This document shows positions 224-29,804 of a DNA stretch of 37,769 nt, piece by piece; positions within the stretch are counted from its first letter, which is position 1; the number at the start of each line of letters is the position of its first letter. The stretch is taken from IMG/VR virus record IMGVR_UViG_3300045988_180316. The stretch is one strand, 5' to 3'. The DNA is from a virus. Lineage: Duplodnaviria; Heunggongvirae; Uroviricota; Caudoviricetes. The notes below the pieces were generated by a model, which made no database searches, was not told the DNA's origin, and was given only the letters and a program-made list of their open reading frames with translations. A program made the position numbers and the translations under genes.

Positions 224-299
224 CGCGGTGTGGAGCAGTTGGTAGCTCGCCAGGCTCATAACCTGGAGGTCGCATGTTCGAGTCCTGCCGCCGCAACCA
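224..299 (+). tRNA. tRNA-Met (anticodon CAT), initiator-like
   Basis: Cloverleaf read by hand: acceptor CGCGGTG/CGCCGCA, D-arm GAGC..GCTC, anticodon arm CCAGG-CTCATAA-CCTGG, T-arm GCATG-TTCGAGT-CCTGC, encoded CCA. The C1xA72 mismatch and A11:U24 are initiator hallmarks. It aligns position by position with E. coli tRNA-fMet. Confidence 0.9.
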
Positions 300-415: not shown

Positions 416-1579
416 ATGACTGCAAAAGAAATTGATTTTTTGAGCTCGCGTGAAATAGTAGGTTTCACGCTGCCTGTGTTGCATACCAAGGGCGGTTACT
501 GGTATGTTGACTTTACTGCCTTTGACCCTGTCTCGGGTCGGATGAAGCGCAAGAAGTACATGCTTAATAGGTACAAGACAGACCACAAGAAGCGTATGAT
601 GGGTACCTTGCTTATCCACAATATCACGGCAAAATTGACCGCTGGCTGGAATCCTTGGGTGAATGCCGACAAGTCGAGACAATTCACTGAAATACCAATT
701 ATCTTTAGTCGTTATCGTGATTATATTAAGTCGATGACCGACAAAAAGTCGATGAAGGAAAAGACCTCTATCGACTACCTCAGCCGCCTCAAGACTCTGG
801 AGTCTTTTATCTCTGAGTGCAAGAGTGTCAAATATGCCTATCAGATTGACCGTGCCTTTGCCATCGACTTCTTAGACCACCTGATGTATGACCGTGATGT
901 GAGTGCTACCACAAGAAACAACTATCGCTCTTGGCTTGTGTCCTTCGGCACTTGGCTTATGGATAGAAAATATATCAGCGAGAACCCTGCCATCGACATC
1001 AGAAACATCGCTCAGAAGGAGAAGTTCAGAGACCCTTTGACCGAGGGCGCACTTAAGAAGCTGAAGACTTATCTCTATGATAACAACAGACATTTTCTCT
1101 TGGCTTGCCTCTTTGAATATTATACCTTTATCCGACCGAATGAGTTGACGCAGATAAGAATCAAAGATGTGTCGATTGCTGACCAGACGGTCTTTATCAG
1201 TTCTGCCATCAGCAAGAACCGTAAGGACGGACTTGTGGCATTGAACGATGAAATCTTGAAGCTCATGATAGAGCTGAAGATATTTGAGCATCCGGGACAT
1301 TGTTTTATCTTTGGCAAGGGTTTGAAGCCCGGAGAGGAAAGAGCACCTTATAATCAGCTGAGAGTGGAGTGGGGTAAGATGAGAGATGCGATTGGGTTTC
1401 CGAAGGAGTATCAGTTTTATAGCCTGAAGGACACTGGCATCAGGGATTTGGCGAACGCACAGGGTATCGTGGTCGCCAAGGATCAGGCACGCCACTCTGA
1501 TATATCTGTGACGAATCGATATATCAAGAACCAGATGAAAGTGAACGAGGAGACCAAGCACTTCAAAGGTGGGCTTTAG
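416..1579 (+). CDS. int: Tyrosine recombinase / phage integrase
   Basis: 387 aa. The C-terminal catalytic region reads ...YSLKDTGIRDLA...ARHSDISVTNRYI (box II His/Arg and nucleophile Tyr). The position next to a tRNA fits an integrase. Confidence 0.9.
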   Translation: MTAKEIDFLSSREIVGFTLPVLHTKGGYWYVDFTAFDPVSGRMKRKKYMLNRYKTDHKKRMMGTLLIHNITAKLTAGWNPWVNADKSRQFTEIPIIFSRYRDYIKSMTDKKSMKEKTSIDYLSRLKTLESFISECKSVKYAYQIDRAFAIDFLDHLMYDRDVSATTRNNYRSWLVSFGTWLMDRKYISENPAIDIRNIAQKEKFRDPLTEGALKKLKTYLYDNNRHFLLACLFEYYTFIRPNELTQIRIKDVSIADQTVFISSAISKNRKDGLVALNDEILKLMIELKIFEHPGHCFIFGKGLKPGEERAPYNQLRVEWGKMRDAIGFPKEYQFYSLKDTGIRDLANAQGIVVAKDQARHSDISVTNRYIKNQMKVNEETKHFKGGL

Positions 1580-10512: not shown

Positions 10513-10920
10513 TTAGACCTCTCTTGCGAGAATCTCCTTGGCTATCTCCTTGGCCTCTTTGCGCCACGACTGATAAGCCTCGAACTCTGCCTCGTGAGTC
10601 TCGTCACCATCGCCACGGTTGGCAAGAATAGCCTCGACCTGATTTTGGCTGTATCGGGTGCGAACCAAACCTGCGGTGAAATCGTCGTAGGTGGCTGCGG
10701 TCGCCTGAATCTTGGTCGAGCCATCAGGCTCTGTGCCCTCATAGCTGTAAGCAGTGACACCCTCGGAGTTTTCATCTTCTGACTGCTCTGAGGTATCGGA
10801 AGAGCCTGTAGCGGCCTCTGGGTGATAGTTTTCAACTTTCTGCTCACCAGTGTAGAGCAGATAATGGTTATCGTCATACTTGACGAAGCTCTTGCGAGCG
10901 AGATAATACTTCTTGTTCAT
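10513..10920 (-). CDS. Acidic 135-aa protein directly downstream of the RT (unknown function)
   Basis: ATG lies 6 nt after the RT stop. The middle is an acidic, low-complexity stretch (SSDTSEQSEDENSEG) and the C-terminus is helical. Confidence 0.7.
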   Translation of the reverse strand: MNKKYYLARKSFVKYDDNHYLLYTGEQKVENYHPEAATGSSDTSEQSEDENSEGVTAYSYEGTEPDGSTKIQATAATYDDFTAGLVRTRYSQNQVEAILANRGDGDETHEAEFEAYQSWRKEAKEIAKEILAREV

Positions 10921-10926
10921 AATTGA

Positions 10927-12501
10927 TCACGTGAATTTATAGAACTTCTTTTTGAACTTATTGTGAAGCTCTGCGACCACGGTGGAGAAGGGTAGCTCGT
11001 CACGACAGAAGTCGTTGAGGGCTTGGTCTATCAAGATCTTGGAGCCTGTATAGAGGTAGTGCTCCTGAGGCTGCCATACCTCGGTGCCGTCTGGCTCCAG
11101 GTGGTCGATGATGCGATAGCGAAGGGAGAGGCGCTTCTTGGGTACCTCTTTGGTGACCATGTGGGTGGAGCCGTCCGGGGCGGTCTCCTCTTGCTGGATG
11201 GTCTCCTTCTCTATCACCGAGTCATCGACCTTGTAGTCTATCACTTGGACGAGGAACTTGTTCTCGTCCTGACCCTCACGGCAGATGATGTCCTCGATGG
11301 ACTGCTGCTGTGATTTCTCCATACCGTCAAAAGGCACGCGCGCACGGCGAGCCTTGACGAGTTTACCGAATCTTTCCATACCGATTTTCTTATATAAGTG
11401 TTTTGAGTTTGCGTGGATGCCCAGTCCTAGGCGAGAGGCTGCCTTGATCTGTATCTGACGGTCTGTGAAGCCCGCCTTGCGTAAGTTGGCAATCTGTTTG
11501 CAGAGGTCGTGCTTGAACCGCTTGCGCAGCAGGGCGTGGTCAGCGTAGATGATCTGACCGCAGAAGTCGATGCCATCGCAGGTGCGGTGGATACCCCAAG
11601 ACTTATTGATGGATAGGTGCCAGTCACGGGCGAGGTGCATCACGGCAAGCTCTGCCATCAGCCTGAGGAACACCTTATCCTCGTGGAGGATGTAGATGTT
11701 GTCCATGAAGCGGTAATAATGGCGAAGACCTTGGCGGCAGAAGCGCTCGAACCTATCGTTGAGCGACTTCACCCCCCCACATAGCAGCTGAGCTTGCTGC
11801 TGAGTGCGACAGGTAACGAGCATGTCGCTCACGTAGCGAGCCTGCCAGTAACGGAACTTGTCGGTGTCTTGGAGAATGTCGAAGCATCGGAGTGCCAGGT
11901 AATCGAAGCGGGCGAGGAAGAGCTGACCCAAGAGTTGGGCGAGCTTGACGCCGAGCACGATGCCTGGATTGAAGCTATCGACCACCTCGTCGATGAAGGC
12001 GAGGAGCTTGCGGTCTTTGATCTTGCGGCGATATTCACTTTTGAGAAGAGCGTGGTCTATGCTCTGAAAATAATGGTGAATATCCATGGGCAAGCAGTAG
12101 AAGGTATCTTGCTGTGGCGAGTTGAAGATGTCTCGCTTGACAAGATTATAGAAATAATGGGTGCCCTTGCCCTTGGAACCAGCCGGACTGTGGCTGTAGA
12201 GTGTCTTGCGAAGGTTATCCTCTACAGGTTGCAGGGCAGCGTGCTGGATGACGTGGTCGATAACGGGCAGCTTGTTGACTTGGCGATGTTTTGGATAGTC
12301 GATATCTTTGGCGACATAGGCTGAGGTATGCCAAGTTTGTTGGGTGTAAGCATCGAGCATGCGTCCGATGTTATGGTCTAGGTTTGCCTCGAATTTTTGG
12401 ACCGCACGGCGAGACATCTTTTGTCGGGCGTAGTCATAGAATGCCCGACGAAAGTTGTCTAGTGTCTCGACCTGTGGCGATATGTTGCCAAACCTTTTCA
12501 T
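10927..12501 (-). CDS. DGR-type reverse transcriptase (atypical)
   Basis: 524 aa from ATG 12501. RT motifs: KLPVIDHVIQHAAL, SPAGSKGKGTH, CLPMDIHHYFQSIDH (motif A Asp), GIVLGVKLAQLLGQLFL (DGR-like motif B), YYRFMDNIYIL (motif C), IDFCGQIIY..LLRKRF. It lies next to a TR/VR pair. Confidence 0.88.
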   Translation of the reverse strand: MKRFGNISPQVETLDNFRRAFYDYARQKMSRRAVQKFEANLDHNIGRMLDAYTQQTWHTSAYVAKDIDYPKHRQVNKLPVIDHVIQHAALQPVEDNLRKTLYSHSPAGSKGKGTHYFYNLVKRDIFNSPQQDTFYCLPMDIHHYFQSIDHALLKSEYRRKIKDRKLLAFIDEVVDSFNPGIVLGVKLAQLLGQLFLARFDYLALRCFDILQDTDKFRYWQARYVSDMLVTCRTQQQAQLLCGGVKSLNDRFERFCRQGLRHYYRFMDNIYILHEDKVFLRLMAELAVMHLARDWHLSINKSWGIHRTCDGIDFCGQIIYADHALLRKRFKHDLCKQIANLRKAGFTDRQIQIKAASRLGLGIHANSKHLYKKIGMERFGKLVKARRARVPFDGMEKSQQQSIEDIICREGQDENKFLVQVIDYKVDDSVIEKETIQQEETAPDGSTHMVTKEVPKKRLSLRYRIIDHLEPDGTEVWQPQEHYLYTGSKILIDQALNDFCRDELPFSTVVAELHNKFKKKFYKFT

Positions 12502-12710
12502 AAGCGGTGTAATGTCTGTGTTGAACGGTGTATAAACTGTGTATAGTCTGAATCGTCTGCTTTTGTACACTTGATAACCTTCGACCGGATGACCGTGTTG
12601 TCATCATCTACCAGCTGTCTTATTGATGTGTATGTATCGCCATGGGGCGAGGATTGACCCTGTAATCTCGAAGTGGGAGCAAACGACCCACGAAGAGATA
12701 TGTCTGTAAG

Positions 12711-13069: not shown

Positions 13070-14542
13070 TTAGGCCGCCTCGTAATACACGGGTTCCACT
13101 GACCACTCGGATGCTGCTTCGCAGAGGGCGGCGCCGCAGTACACATAGGCAAGCGAGACAGCATCGCTCACGTCGCGCGTCGAAAGACCGCATTGACCAC
13201 CAACGTAAGCGCTAGCACCACGAAGGCAGACACGAAAACCGGATGTAGCGCCGCTATTATTCCAGAAATAGCTAGTCCAATAGGTTGACTCGGATGCGCC
13301 CGTGGCGGTCGGGAAGTTCTCCAGATGCTCCATCGAGAGCGTCTTGATAAAGCCTTCGCCCTTGGTCGGCGAGGTGCTGTAAGCCACCATGCCATCGGCG
13401 GAACCTATCGTCCACGTGCCGTAGATGGACGGTGCCACGAGATGGGTCACGGAAGTGTCTTCGTTGCATCGCACCTGCTCGTCATCCATGTGTCGCCACA
13501 ACGAGCCGAAGCCATTTTTGTAGCCGAAGAAGGATGGTATCTTGGCGGTATAGACCACGGTGCCATCGTCTTTTTTGACCTCGTAGCTTGCCTCGCCACA
13601 AGCGTCGCCCAGCTCGATGCCGGCAGACATCGGCACGACAGGGCGATAGCCGTTGTAACCACCCCAATCAGGCATCTGTGTCACGCCAGCTCCGAGACCA
13701 CCCTGGTAGAGACCGTTGGCATCTTTTTGGCTGTTGACGGCATCCTGGTCGTAGTGGGTGCCGAAGATGACCCCGAAGAGCACGGCGATGGCAGAGGTGT
13801 GGCGCATGGTGGTGCAGAGCCAGCCTGTGCCGTTTTTGCGGGCAGCGGCACGCCAGTATTCGGTAGTCTGGTTGGTGGCAGCCTTGCCCAGCATGGTGCG
13901 GTTGGTGTTATCTAACGTTGAGTCGTTGTTGCCGCCTCGGTAGTCTGTGCCCTCGTTGATGTAACTCACCAGCTTGCCTGTGCTGCGCTCTAGCGTGGCG
14001 AAGCCAGCGGCGGAGATGCTGCCAACAGGTATCTTGTAGTTGTACTCGCCTGGTATCGGCGTAGGGCTGACCATCTCGTAATGGAGTCTGCCCACGGTCT
14101 TGATGACCATGTACCACTCCTTGCCCCAGCCCCACTGGTAGTGCCCCTCTGAGCCGTCGAGCTTGGCTGTCTCGCCGGTGGCATACTTGTAATGGTCTTT
14201 GGAGTCGAGCTTGCGACGGGAGTGGTCATTCTTGACTAGGTAGCAGCCCAGACCCAGCTCCGCTGGTAGGGTCTGCAGTAACTCCAGCGAGCCCACATAA
14301 GTGGCGGCCTTAGGGGTTGCATTGTCGAGGTTCCACACTCGACCACACCAAGGATGCTGTCCCATCTGGACGGCGCTTTTGAGCGACATCTGCTCAGACC
14401 TGCCAGACTTTTTGTCGAAGACCTCGACAATCTTGTCTGTGGCGCTCATGTCTGACTGTGGGAGGTCGTCAACCTGTTGACCTCCATCGAAAGCGGCTAT
14501 GATAGCCTTGAGCTTACTCTCTTCTTCTGATGTTAATGCCAT
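13070..14542 (-). CDS. DGR target: receptor-binding/tail-fibre-tip protein with a C-type-lectin-fold variable C-terminus
   Basis: 490 aa from ATG 14542 (MALTSEEESKL...); the track start at 14755 overlaps the upstream gene. The C-terminus reads ...GFRVCLRGASAYVGGQCGLSTRDVSDAVSLAYVYCGAAL. Confidence 0.85.
   Translation of the reverse strand: MALTSEEESKLKAIIAAFDGGQQVDDLPQSDMSATDKIVEVFDKKSGRSEQMSLKSAVQMGQHPWCGRVWNLDNATPKAATYVGSLELLQTLPAELGLGCYLVKNDHSRRKLDSKDHYKYATGETAKLDGSEGHYQWGWGKEWYMVIKTVGRLHYEMVSPTPIPGEYNYKIPVGSISAAGFATLERSTGKLVSYINEGTDYRGGNNDSTLDNTNRTMLGKAATNQTTEYWRAAARKNGTGWLCTTMRHTSAIAVLFGVIFGTHYDQDAVNSQKDANGLYQGGLGAGVTQMPDWGGYNGYRPVVPMSAGIELGDACGEASYEVKKDDGTVVYTAKIPSFFGYKNGFGSLWRHMDDEQVRCNEDTSVTHLVAPSIYGTWTIGSADGMVAYSTSPTKGEGFIKTLSMEHLENFPTATGASESTYWTSYFWNNSGATSGFRVCLRGASAYVGGQCGLSTRDVSDAVSLAYVYCGAALCEAASEWSVEPVYYEAA
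13122..13242 (-). repeat. DGR variable repeat (VR)
   Basis: It lies inside the 3' end of the target gene. It shows 15 mismatches to the TR, and 14 of them fall at TR adenines on the coding strand. Confidence 0.9.
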
Positions 14543-28149: not shown

Positions 28150-28332
28150 CTAAAGCCCAAGTTCTTGATAGATAGATTTCAGAGTGCGAATATTCACCTC
28201 TTCAGTTCCATGCCGAGGAACGGCAGTGCTCTTCCCATTGGCTGGGTTGAACCAAATGTCGTGTCGGCCTCCATGACGAAGTAGAAAGCATCCCGCTTTC
28301 TTTAACTTCCGATACAGTTCACTGTATTTCAT
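28150..28332 (-). CDS. hicA: HicA-family mRNA interferase toxin
   Basis: 60 aa from ATG 28332: MKYSELYRKLKKAGCFLLRHGGRHDIWFNPANGKSTAVPRHGTEEVNIRTLKSIYQELGL, the typical HicA pattern. The track start at 28407 lies upstream of the promoter. Confidence 0.85.
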   Translation of the reverse strand: MKYSELYRKLKKAGCFLLRHGGRHDIWFNPANGKSTAVPRHGTEEVNIRTLKSIYQELGL

Positions 28333-28376
28333 AATCTCAGTATGTTTAAAGAACACTTTGTCCTTATTGGACGATG

Positions 28377-28408
28377 CAAAGGTAACAATAAAGTTATAAA
28401 TAACCAAA
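28377..28408 (-). promoter_or_regulatory. Full Bacteroidota promoter for hicAB
   Basis: Plus CAAAGGTA at 28377-28384 and CAAA at 28405-28408, with a 20-nt spacer. Confidence 0.6.
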
Positions 28409-28530
28409 TATTTCGGTAACTATTTTGTTATATTACCTAAGATTTAACATTTATACATAAAGATAAGCGATGTCCCTACCTCTTTTAGGCTCTTGCCAGA
28501 CCGCTTTCGCCGCTAGGCGAAAAATTTTCA

Positions 28531-28561
28531 GAAAAATAGGGAAGGTCGAAAAACCTTCCCT
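28531..28561 (-). terminator. Rho-independent terminator after radC
   Basis: 9-bp stem AGGGAAGGT (28538-28546) / ACCTTCCCT (28553-28561) followed by a U-run on the minus strand. Confidence 0.7.
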
Positions 28562-28576
28562 TGTACCTATTATATA

Positions 28577-29263
28577 TTATAGCTTTCCCTTGTCGTGGTA
28601 GCTGTAGAAGCCATCCTCGGCTAAGATGATGTGGTCCATCAAGAAGAGTCTCATCACCTCGCACGCCTTGGCTATCTTCTGCGTGAGCATATCGTCCGCC
28701 TTGCTCGGCTGCGTGCTGTTCGATGGGTGGTTGTGCGCCACGGCGATGATGGTTGCGTTGTTGAGCACGGCTTCTTTCATTATCAGCCTTATGTCCACCG
28801 CTGTGTCGGTGATGCCTCCCTCGCTGAGCTTCACACTCTTTATCAGTCTGAAGTTTTGGTTCATCAGCACTACCCAAAAGCCCTCTGTCTCATTGCTTCC
28901 CATCATCGGGCGAAGATAGTTGTAGAGTGCTAGGCTGCTGCCTAGGTCGGTATTACGTGCCACCTTTTCCATTTGGTAGCGTCTGCCTAGCTCGATGGCT
29001 GCCTGTAGGGCTATCGCCTTGCAGTCGCCGATGCCTGGTACCACCTCTAGGTCTTCGATTCTCGCCTTGCCGATATTGCGAAGTGAGTTGTCCATGATGT
29101 TATAAATCTGTCGTGCCTGCTCTTGGCTGTCCTTGGTACCTGCCCCTCTGTTGATTACCAAAGAAATCAAGTCAACGTTGGTTAGGGTGTCGAAGCCTTG
29201 GTTATAGGCTCTGTACTGCGGTCTCTCCTCCATACAAAGGTCGTTATAATTTTGTCGTATCAT
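28577..29263 (-). CDS. radC: RadC-like JAB/MPN-domain protein
   Basis: 228 aa with an HhH-like GIGDCKAIALQAAIELGRR and a JAMM motif ...ATIIAVAHNHPSNSTQPSKADDMLT.... Confidence 0.85.
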   Translation of the reverse strand: MIRQNYNDLCMEERPQYRAYNQGFDTLTNVDLISLVINRGAGTKDSQEQARQIYNIMDNSLRNIGKARIEDLEVVPGIGDCKAIALQAAIELGRRYQMEKVARNTDLGSSLALYNYLRPMMGSNETEGFWVVLMNQNFRLIKSVKLSEGGITDTAVDIRLIMKEAVLNNATIIAVAHNHPSNSTQPSKADDMLTQKIAKACEVMRLFLMDHIILAEDGFYSYHDKGKL

Positions 29264-29279
29264 AGCTATATTGTTTTAA

Positions 29280-29804
29280 TTAGTTATACATTCTCTTGGT
29301 TCTCGCTAGGAACATCGCTCCCATCACTTGTGCGCCACATTCTGCTAGCTCGTTGGCGAACTCTCGGGCGGTCGCACCGCTTGTCACCACATCGTCGAAG
29401 ATGATGACTTTCTTTCCGTTGAAATACTCTCTATCGAGTGCCACTCTGTAGTCGAAGCTCTCGCACACTCTGTCGGCGCTGAAGTGCTTTGCCGTGCGCT
29501 CGCCATAGATGGAAATGTGCTCGCTTCCGTTCTGTACCTTTGCGCCTTGGCTCACCTTTTGGGCGAAGCGAGAAAAGCGCTTGTTGTACTTCTTGGAGTT
29601 GGCTGCTGGTGCGCATACCATCACGAAGTCGCTGGCTTTGTCGCCATAGGTGTTGACGAAAGAGCTGACCACCATATCGGCTGCGGCGTCTGTCGCCCAC
29701 TGCTTGCCATCCTTGAAAGCAAAGATGAAGTTTCTCACTTGCTCGGCTTGCGCTGAGCGGTCGAAACGCTTGGAGTTGTACTCGTAATAATTGAAAGTTT
29801 TCAT
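29280..29804 (-). CDS. ComF-like phosphoribosyltransferase (type I PRTase domain)
   Basis: 174 aa with the PRPP-binding loop GKKVIIFDDVVTSGATAREF. It lacks an N-terminal zinc finger. Its stop lies 16 nt upstream of the radC ATG. Confidence 0.75.
   Translation of the reverse strand: MKTFNYYEYNSKRFDRSAQAEQVRNFIFAFKDGKQWATDAAADMVVSSFVNTYGDKASDFVMVCAPAANSKKYNKRFSRFAQKVSQGAKVQNGSEHISIYGERTAKHFSADRVCESFDYRVALDREYFNGKKVIIFDDVVTSGATAREFANELAECGAQVMGAMFLARTKRMYN

Follow-up and report, generated by a model that had tools for sequence, protein, structure and literature searches.

A probably active, Avd-less diversity-generating retroelement with an Asp-Asn reverse transcriptase in a clade of gut phages

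Can a reverse transcriptase (RT) with asparagine in place of the second aspartate of its YxDD box still drive a diversity-generating retroelement (DGR)? The question is raised by IMG/VR virus record IMGVR_UViG_3300045988_180316, a stretch of 37,769 nucleotides (nt) that was analysed as a whole (hereafter the window), in which the RT of a DGR reads FMDN in motif C. In a survey of DGRs, both motif-C aspartates were 100% conserved (PMC3521204), all RTs are said to contain three aspartates, and retroviral RTs are inactive when any of the three is mutated (PMC2148107). The analysis makes it probable that the window holds a complete DGR lacking the accessory protein Avd, carried by a Bacteroidales prophage and belonging to a large clade of gut phages in which an RT of this Asp-Asn (D-N) type is active. 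This clade is defined by a helical insertion of 50 amino acids (aa) in the RT, a β-rich C-terminal domain of ∼140 aa, the structured RNA RT-17, and a small open reading frame (ORF) adjacent to the RT gene.

The activity of the D-N elements can be read from paired template (TR) and variable (VR) repeats, which were identified by filtered self-comparison upstream of the RT gene in 171 related loci from IMG/VR and from genome and metagenome assemblies, with duplicate VRs removed. Differences between the two repeats fell at TR adenines in 692 of 713 cases in the 65 FMDN loci, in 141 of 143 in the 13 FADN loci, and in all eight (8/8) in the single FVDN locus, which gives 841/864 for the pooled D-N loci (97–99%), and the corresponding count for 20 loci of a sister lineage with both aspartates (D-D; motif LADD) was 191/200. 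The fraction of TR adenines that had been changed was 0.48–0.49 in FMDN and FADN loci against 0.44 in LADD loci, and ∼50% of adenines are changed in the DGRs of Bordetella and Bacteroides (PMC11601372). Six near-identical phages, comprising the window and five other IMG/VR records, differ at 0–8 sites per 100 nt in the flanks over 3 kb around the cassette; among them the VR was variable at 23 of 119 sites, 21 of these at TR-adenine positions, and the TR at 0 of 119. Since the VR varies between near-identical phages in which the TR is identical, the VR is not frozen. The RT gene is intact in 55 of the 68 distinct FMDN genes, and, judged from these sequence patterns, the mutagenised cDNA is most probably the product of the D-N protein itself.

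The Asn is shared by a lineage. Among 5.8 billion protein clusters, 252 homologues were found, and the best 120 of them (35–92% identity, nearly all 510–550 aa) were analysed; in a MAFFT alignment of 121 sequences, motif C reads FADN in 49, FVDN in 45, FMDN in 26, and LADD in one, and Asn is kept in 120 of 121 homologue clusters. An earlier note on this DNA, which had been made from its letters and predicted ORFs, had considered that close homologues might all carry YMDD with the window copy as a singleton, and the opposite is seen. Both AAC and AAT are used within each D-N sub-lineage, indicating that Asn has been held through synonymous turnover, and it appears to be kept under purifying selection in the derived FMDN/FADN/FVDN sub-clade. 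In a neighbour-joining tree (no support values) rooted on bRT, the RT of BPP-1, the LADD lineages are basal and every F-x-D-N sequence falls in one derived clade, for which a single ancient Asp-to-Asn change, retained since, would be the most economical reading. The LADD set was revealed by loci fetched via the small ORF (L084–L085 and L115–L169) and forms an abundant sister lineage of 34–40% identity, which reads R-L-A-D-D in motif C and shares the insertion, the C-terminal domain, and the small ORF; because these features also occur in D-D sisters, they are not tied to the Asn and are not adaptations to it. The Leu in this motif stands where only Tyr or Phe has been reported in DGR RTs. Among other polymerases, those of non-segmented negative-strand RNA viruses naturally carry GDN in the equivalent motif.

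The assignment of the protein to the DGR RTs draws on sequence and fold. It matches PHROG 1423 ("reverse transcriptase," E 4.8e-54), its top PDB sequence match is bRT (8ub7; phmmer), and its AlphaFold2 model (pLDDT 85) has its top Foldseek match in bRT 8ub7 (E 1.5e-15), with group II intron RTs ranking next; in addition, RT motif 4 has the DGR form, reading LG.K.SQ or LG.K.AQ across the clade alignment. Pfam RVT_1 does not match the window RT because the insertion splits the domain. In precomputed Pfam tables, RVT_1 is present for only ∼9 of the best 120 of the 252 homologues, and the few names given by the sources are mostly "hypothetical protein," apart from one "RNA-directed DNA polymerase"; surveys of DGRs that rely on domain matches may count too few members of this RT clade.

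Motif C lies in the stretch RHYYRFMDNIYIL, which phmmer aligns to RHWARYMDDIVVL of bRT (8ub7), so that D267-N268 correspond to D215-D216; the catalytic aspartates of bRT are D138, D215, and D216 (bioRxiv 10.1101/2023.10.23.563531). The earlier reading of FMDN as a motif C with Asn for the second Asp is thus borne out (N268 aligns to bRT D216), as is the position given for the Asn codon (AAC at 11700–11698 on the minus strand, one transition from GAC). A canonical Y/F-x-D-D box is absent from the window RT, and this departure concerns a conserved DGR feature and leaves the hallmarks of DGR function untouched. The positions that govern adenine mutagenesis (fidelity) are kept, with R73, L183, and Q189 corresponding to R74, I181, and Q187 of bRT, and are conserved in the clade. 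The large insertion between motifs B and C that had been noticed earlier also holds: 77 residues separate the motif B Gln from the motif C Asp, compared with 27 in each of three outgroup RTs (bRT and the RTs of Lactobacillus phage LBR48 and Butyrivibrio phage Closwp03), which amounts to 50 extra aa, and the insertion is conserved across the clade alignment. Similarly, the extension of about 150 aa in a protein of 524 aa was measured at 152 residues past the thumb, against 0–48 in the three outgroups, and its β domain is confidently predicted.

Table 1. Features of the DGR cassette in the window, listed in the 5' to 3' direction of the minus strand (aa, amino acids; nt, nucleotides).
Feature	Coordinates	Strand	Remarks
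Target gene, phage tail protein, VR at C-terminal end	13070..14542	-	PHROG 5302 "tail protein," E 5.5e-58
VR, 119 nt	13124..13242	-	direct repeat with TR, 89% identity
TR, 119 nt, 22 adenines mostly in AAC codons	12713..12831	-	direct repeat with VR
Hairpin directly 3' of TR	12660..12693	-	sequences read by eye
RT-17 RNA (Rfam RF03020), structured spacer between TR and RT	12553..12654	-	59.4 bits vs gathering 40.4
Run of (A/G)ACAC(C/A)G words	12502..12552	-	between RT-17 RNA and RT start codon
DGR reverse transcriptase, 524 aa	10927..12501	-	stop codon 10927-10929; PHROG 1423 and bRT match
Motif A catalytic Asp140 in LPMDIHHYF	12082..12084	-	invariant in alignment; aligns with bRT D138 region
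Motif B / RT motif 4, LGVKLAQ	11935..11955	-	DGR-type [LI]GxxxSQ signature, Ala replacing Ser here
Insertion between motifs B and C, residues 200-258	11728..11904	-	four helices predicted (AlphaFold2), pLDDT ~87-96
G7 homopolymer in insertion, codons C241-G242-G243-V244	11772..11778	-	in frame in window
Motif C, F265-M266-D267-N268	11698..11709	-	Asn in place of second YxDD Asp
C-terminal β-rich domain, residues 385-524	10930..11349	-	basic, low-confidence linker to thumb
Conserved acidic ORF, 135 aa, pI 4.6, starts 7 nt past RT stop	10513..10920	-	candidate non-Avd accessory protein

The remaining parts of the cassette all lie on the minus strand with the RT, in the order of a tail-protein target with VR, TR, hairpin and RT-17 RNA, RT, and small acidic ORF (Table 1). 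The match to PHROG 5302 spans residues 70–548 of the 561-aa target ORF, for which Pfam gave no match; the ORF call reaches 14755, and homology together with a Met (MALTSEE...) places the start near 14542. The TR/VR pair is the sole one in the window, and TR adenines account for 12 of the 13 differences between its two repeats; the 3' end of the TR is a GC-rich sequence, GGCGCCGCCCTC, which is common to the VR. The non-adenine difference at position 13177 (T in TR, G in VR) occurs in the window and in one relative (L004) and is absent from four others (L001–L003 and L062). The VR lies 52 nt from the target stop, and the TR precedes the RT start by 211 nt. The gap between target stop and TR (∼238 nt) and that between VR and TR (292 nt) contain no ORF of ≥80 aa; the earlier note, which saw no room for an Avd ORF between VR and TR, had put the latter gap at an approximate 225 nt.

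The spacer between TR and RT carries two structured elements. The RT-17 covariance model is matched in full (positions 1–95 of 95), and RT-17 was also found between TR and RT in L065, L082, L088, and L084, including FADN and LADD relatives. A BPP-1-type phage carries another RNA, RF03022, at the spacer position, and because RT-17 sits where the BPP-1 Sp (Phage_DGR) RNA does, it can be regarded as the counterpart of Sp RNA, which in BPP-1 primes and positions the template and is gripped by its cognate RT (bioRxiv 10.1101/2023.10.23.563531). RT-17 has been published only as an RNA near RT genes, with only RT-10 linked to a DGR (PMC5737381). From a MAFFT alignment of the spacers, RNAalifold retrieved no more of RT-17 than its first hairpin, and the Rfam covariance match counts as the stronger evidence. 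Read by eye, the separate hairpin next to the TR has lineage-specific stem sequences with pairing kept (GTGGG/CCCAC, ACAGGGC/GCCCTGT, CTGCAG/CTGCAG, TCCACA/TGTGGA, TGTGCGG/CCGCACA, GCATGG/CCATGC, and CCGGT/ACCGG) and a loop that often contains GTTTGC. The (A/G)ACAC(C/A)G words that follow RT-17 vary in copy number from 2 to 7 among lineages.

The element also raises the question of what, if anything, takes the place of Avd. Neither bAvd (PF22296) nor 23S_rRNA_IVP (PF05635) was detected at E ≤ 0.05 among 94 window ORFs of 80–230 aa in six frames, in a Pfam search in which a BPP-1-type Avd matched PF22296 at 7e-36 as a positive control, and three divergent relatives likewise have no Avd family on record within 8 kb, nor do the precomputed Pfam tables for L081–L085 list one. 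The gap between VR and TR is 158–314 nt across the clade and therefore too short for an avd gene. Among the same 94 ORFs, a match to the four-helix bundle Cytochrom_B562 (E 0.006) was considered as a cryptic Avd; the ORF was missing from the 20 plausible same-strand genes and was rejected as spurious. The earlier proposal of a distinct Avd-independent lineage therefore stands as regards the lineage, a conserved clade, and the lack of Avd. The absence is real but has already been described for DGR lineage 3, as 29% of DGRs have no accessory genes and the Avd-less lineage 3 is tied to Bacteroides and their phages (Wu et al., 2018). The companion suggestion that the C-terminal extension substitutes for Avd is a hypothesis only, the small acidic ORF being an equally good candidate for that role; this ORF, the RT-17 RNA, and the poly-G tract described below were not part of the earlier note.

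The small ORF shares 33–43% identity with the post-RT ORF of L081, L082, and L084, and a profile search returned 764 homologues, the best 120 of which are 120–142 aa long and acidic (median pI 4.5), with no Pfam domain. When loci were fetched via the small ORF alone, an RT lay directly upstream (5–70 nt) in 85 of 86, the exception being a sequence that begins at the ORF itself, and the genes beyond the ORF varied among loci (lysis genes, a 1154-aa protein, or the prophage end). It showed no similarity to BPP-1 Avd, to PDB entries (profile search), or to Pfam, PHROG, or PADLOC families.

How the element might work can be outlined from these parts. The D-N enzyme would synthesise the adenine-mutagenised cDNA itself, with D140 and D267 as metal ligands and N268 as an uncharged partner; catalysis would probably be slower or shifted in metal preference, as in the engineered Ty1 RT D211N, and slow synthesis may be affordable for a cDNA of ∼120 nt. 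The task that Avd performs in BPP-1, namely holding the template-primer RNA, could fall to elements in cis, the RT-17 RNA being gripped by the insertion, the C-terminal domain, or both, and the small acidic protein possibly shares in it. The fullest version of this outline, in which an RT with two Asp and one Asn operates with a new accessory set of a cis-acting OB-like domain, insertion, RT-17, and acidic partner and is switched through the poly-G tract, is tentative.

An alternative that carries some weight, though it too is short of probable, accepts an active RT and holds that RT and structured RNA suffice, as is presumed for other lineage-3 DGRs, the C-terminal domain and small ORF having nothing to do with replacing Avd; the small ORF would then be a phage gene like any other, and the extension would act in a different step, for example in protecting the cDNA, in homing to the target site, or in oligomerisation. 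The DGRs of crAss-like phages, with the order TG-VR-TR-RT, an RT of ∼340 aa, no Avd, and no such ORF, speak for this alternative, as does the acidity of both the C-terminal domain and the small ORF, in contrast to the basic, nucleic-acid-binding Avd. DGR cassettes, moreover, are commonly placed between tail and lysis genes, and synteny may reflect shared phage ancestry. The near-constant pairing of the small ORF with the RT, where the genes beyond it differ, argues the other way, as does the C-terminal domain, which is found nowhere except on this RT clade and is highly conserved in its alignment. Two independent fold searches with this domain both returned single-strand-binding proteins, a resemblance to SSB/OB folds that is nevertheless weak, and the weakness of the structural matches favours the alternative.

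Several points weigh against an active D-N element with dedicated accessory parts as set out here. The RT gene is interrupted in 13 of the 68 distinct FMDN genes, the patterns seen in populations record past events in the lineage and not the competence of the window copy, and the neighbour-joining tree carries no support values. Tolerance of Asn presumably needs compensating features, and none was identified in the analysis. The small ORF could be merely inherited with related phages, and the lineage-3 DGRs of crAss-like phages work, as far as known, with neither Avd nor the C-terminal domain nor the small ORF. From enzymology, the Ty1 RT D211N mutant (second Asp of YXDD) cannot support transposition in vivo, and the change is not tolerated by retroviral RTs; the same mutant nevertheless keeps polymerase activity in vitro, ∼223-fold slower and with a preference for Mn2+ (PMC2148107). 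The window is also only part of a phage, related IMG/VR contigs being ∼44 kb, and an RT may act in trans.

These last points lend themselves to an improbable alternative, in which the D-N protein is dead and kept as an RNA-binding scaffold, cDNA being supplied in trans by a polymerase or RT of the host or of a co-resident element. RTs are as a rule crippled when the second Asp is lost, but the clade alignment shows no variation in D140, D267, the fingertip residues K71/R73, or the Gln of motif B, which is hard to explain for a non-enzyme, and the outcome of adenine mutagenesis is indistinguishable from that of the D-D sisters. No second RT was found in the 37.8-kb window, the BPP-1 RNA is gripped by its cognate RT, and the architecture persists in at least 79 distinct loci from many hosts. 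The explanation that the earlier note had put beside its lineage proposal, a recent decay in which a single G-to-A change (GAC to AAC) killed the RT and froze the VR, has in its favour the one-transition distance and the sensitivity of retroviral RTs, and is refuted by an Asn shared down to 35% identity in both its codons, an RT that is otherwise clearly constrained, and VRs that still change between near-identical phages.

Variation of another kind affects the G-run in the insertion. Its length is 0–10 in relatives, and most of the interrupted RT genes are shifted exactly at this run. The 98% identical L062, for example, has G8; in another lineage G7 is intact and G6 and G8 are shifted, and in a third lineage G8 is intact and G7 and G10 are shifted. 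Certain close relatives have a broken tract (GGGGGAG), and the LADD lineages have no tract. The variation is due either to homopolymer error in assembly or to slipped-strand on/off switching of the DGR.

The window as a whole is a temperate, siphovirus-like prophage of Bacteroidales with an integrase, a tape-measure protein, and a head maturation protease, and an amidase, a holin-like ORF, and a DUF6549 protein lie shortly downstream of the DGR. A tRNA-Met (224–299, plus strand) adjoins a tyrosine-type integrase (416–1579, plus strand), and this region is probably the attachment site and prophage end. The hosts of relatives are Muribaculaceae, Duncaniella, Phocaeicola, Parabacteroides, and Bacteroides. 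The prophage also carries cargo on the minus strand (28150–29804), comprising a HicA toxin (28150–28407), a RadC-like JAB protein (28577–29263), and a protein with a phosphoribosyltransferase domain (29280–29804).

RT enzymology treats the three aspartates, one in motif A and two in YxDD, as universal, and an abundant lineage of human-gut phages with Asn at one of them constitutes a natural experiment on what the two-metal active site of polymerases needs; the lineage may also hint that metal use or kinetics have changed in a way that suits the making of short mutagenic cDNAs. A compact, Avd-free DGR composed of an RT with extra domains, a small partner ORF, and a defined RNA is also relevant to tools for targeted mutagenesis. 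A literature search on the F-x-D-N motif strings returned unrelated acronyms only, and relative to the literature searched, the F-x-D-N box in an evidently active RT clade, the insertion, and the C-terminal domain appear to be new on the basis of sequence comparison, as do the partner ORF and the assignment of RT-17 to a DGR.

Compared with known systems, the window element resembles the BPP-1 DGR in its RT, for which bRT is the best match in sequence and fold, in the order of target with VR, TR, spacer RNA, and RT, in adenine-specific mutagenesis at about half of TR adenines, and in the counterparts of the fidelity positions. By contrast, bRT is 328 aa long, carries YMDD, has 27 residues from motif B to motif C, and lacks a C-terminal domain; BPP-1 also requires a pentameric, basic Avd (pI 9.6), whose gene lies between VR and TR, and uses the spacer RNA RF03022. 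With lineage 3 (architecture A) it shares the order TG-VR-TR-RT, the lack of avd, and the occurrence in gut Bacteroidales phages, a match made by architecture (Wu et al., 2018). The annotated phage RTs nearest to the window RT are those of crAss-like phages (crAssphage LMMB and cr60_1; 28–29% identity), which are ∼320–340 aa long and have neither the 50-aa insertion nor the C-terminal domain, the matches ending at query residue ∼375; in cr60_1, moreover, no small ORF follows the RT. The annotated 341-aa RT of cr60_1 (L173, 1501–2526) shortens to 132 aa with table 11, which suggests that this phage uses stop-codon reassignment.

Hankyphage (Bacteroides phage p00/jmh72_hp; Benler et al., 2018) is likewise temperate, with a tail-fibre target, an extended RT (434 aa; 24% identity) that shares the unusual DIHH(F/Y) motif A and thumb motifs, and a small ORF directly after the RT. 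Its RT differs in having the canonical RYCDD and no insertion and in being recognised by Pfam RVT_1, and its post-RT ORF (161 aa) has no similarity to the window small ORF (hhalign). This Hankyphage ORF was named Avd-like by size and pI only (PMC6199706). The "Avd" of jmh72_hp (L176, 3802–4287) matches DUF4376 (E 1.3e-5) and no Avd family. A closer description is that of CH1 of lineage 3a, which is small, acidic (pI 4.7), and motif-less and occurs only in Avd-less DGRs of Bacteroides and relatives (Wu et al., 2018); CH1 is 160–169 aa long as against 120–142 aa for the small ORF family, and the small ORF, likened to it by description only, may be related. Among RNAs, the window segment between TR and RT is a full-length member, above the gathering cut-off, of Rfam RT-17 (Weinberg et al., 2017). 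Finally, the Ty1 RT D211N carries the identical residue change in the same motif and still polymerises in vitro; it is a laboratory mutant, whereas the Asn of the phage RTs is natural, ancient, and apparently functional in vivo.

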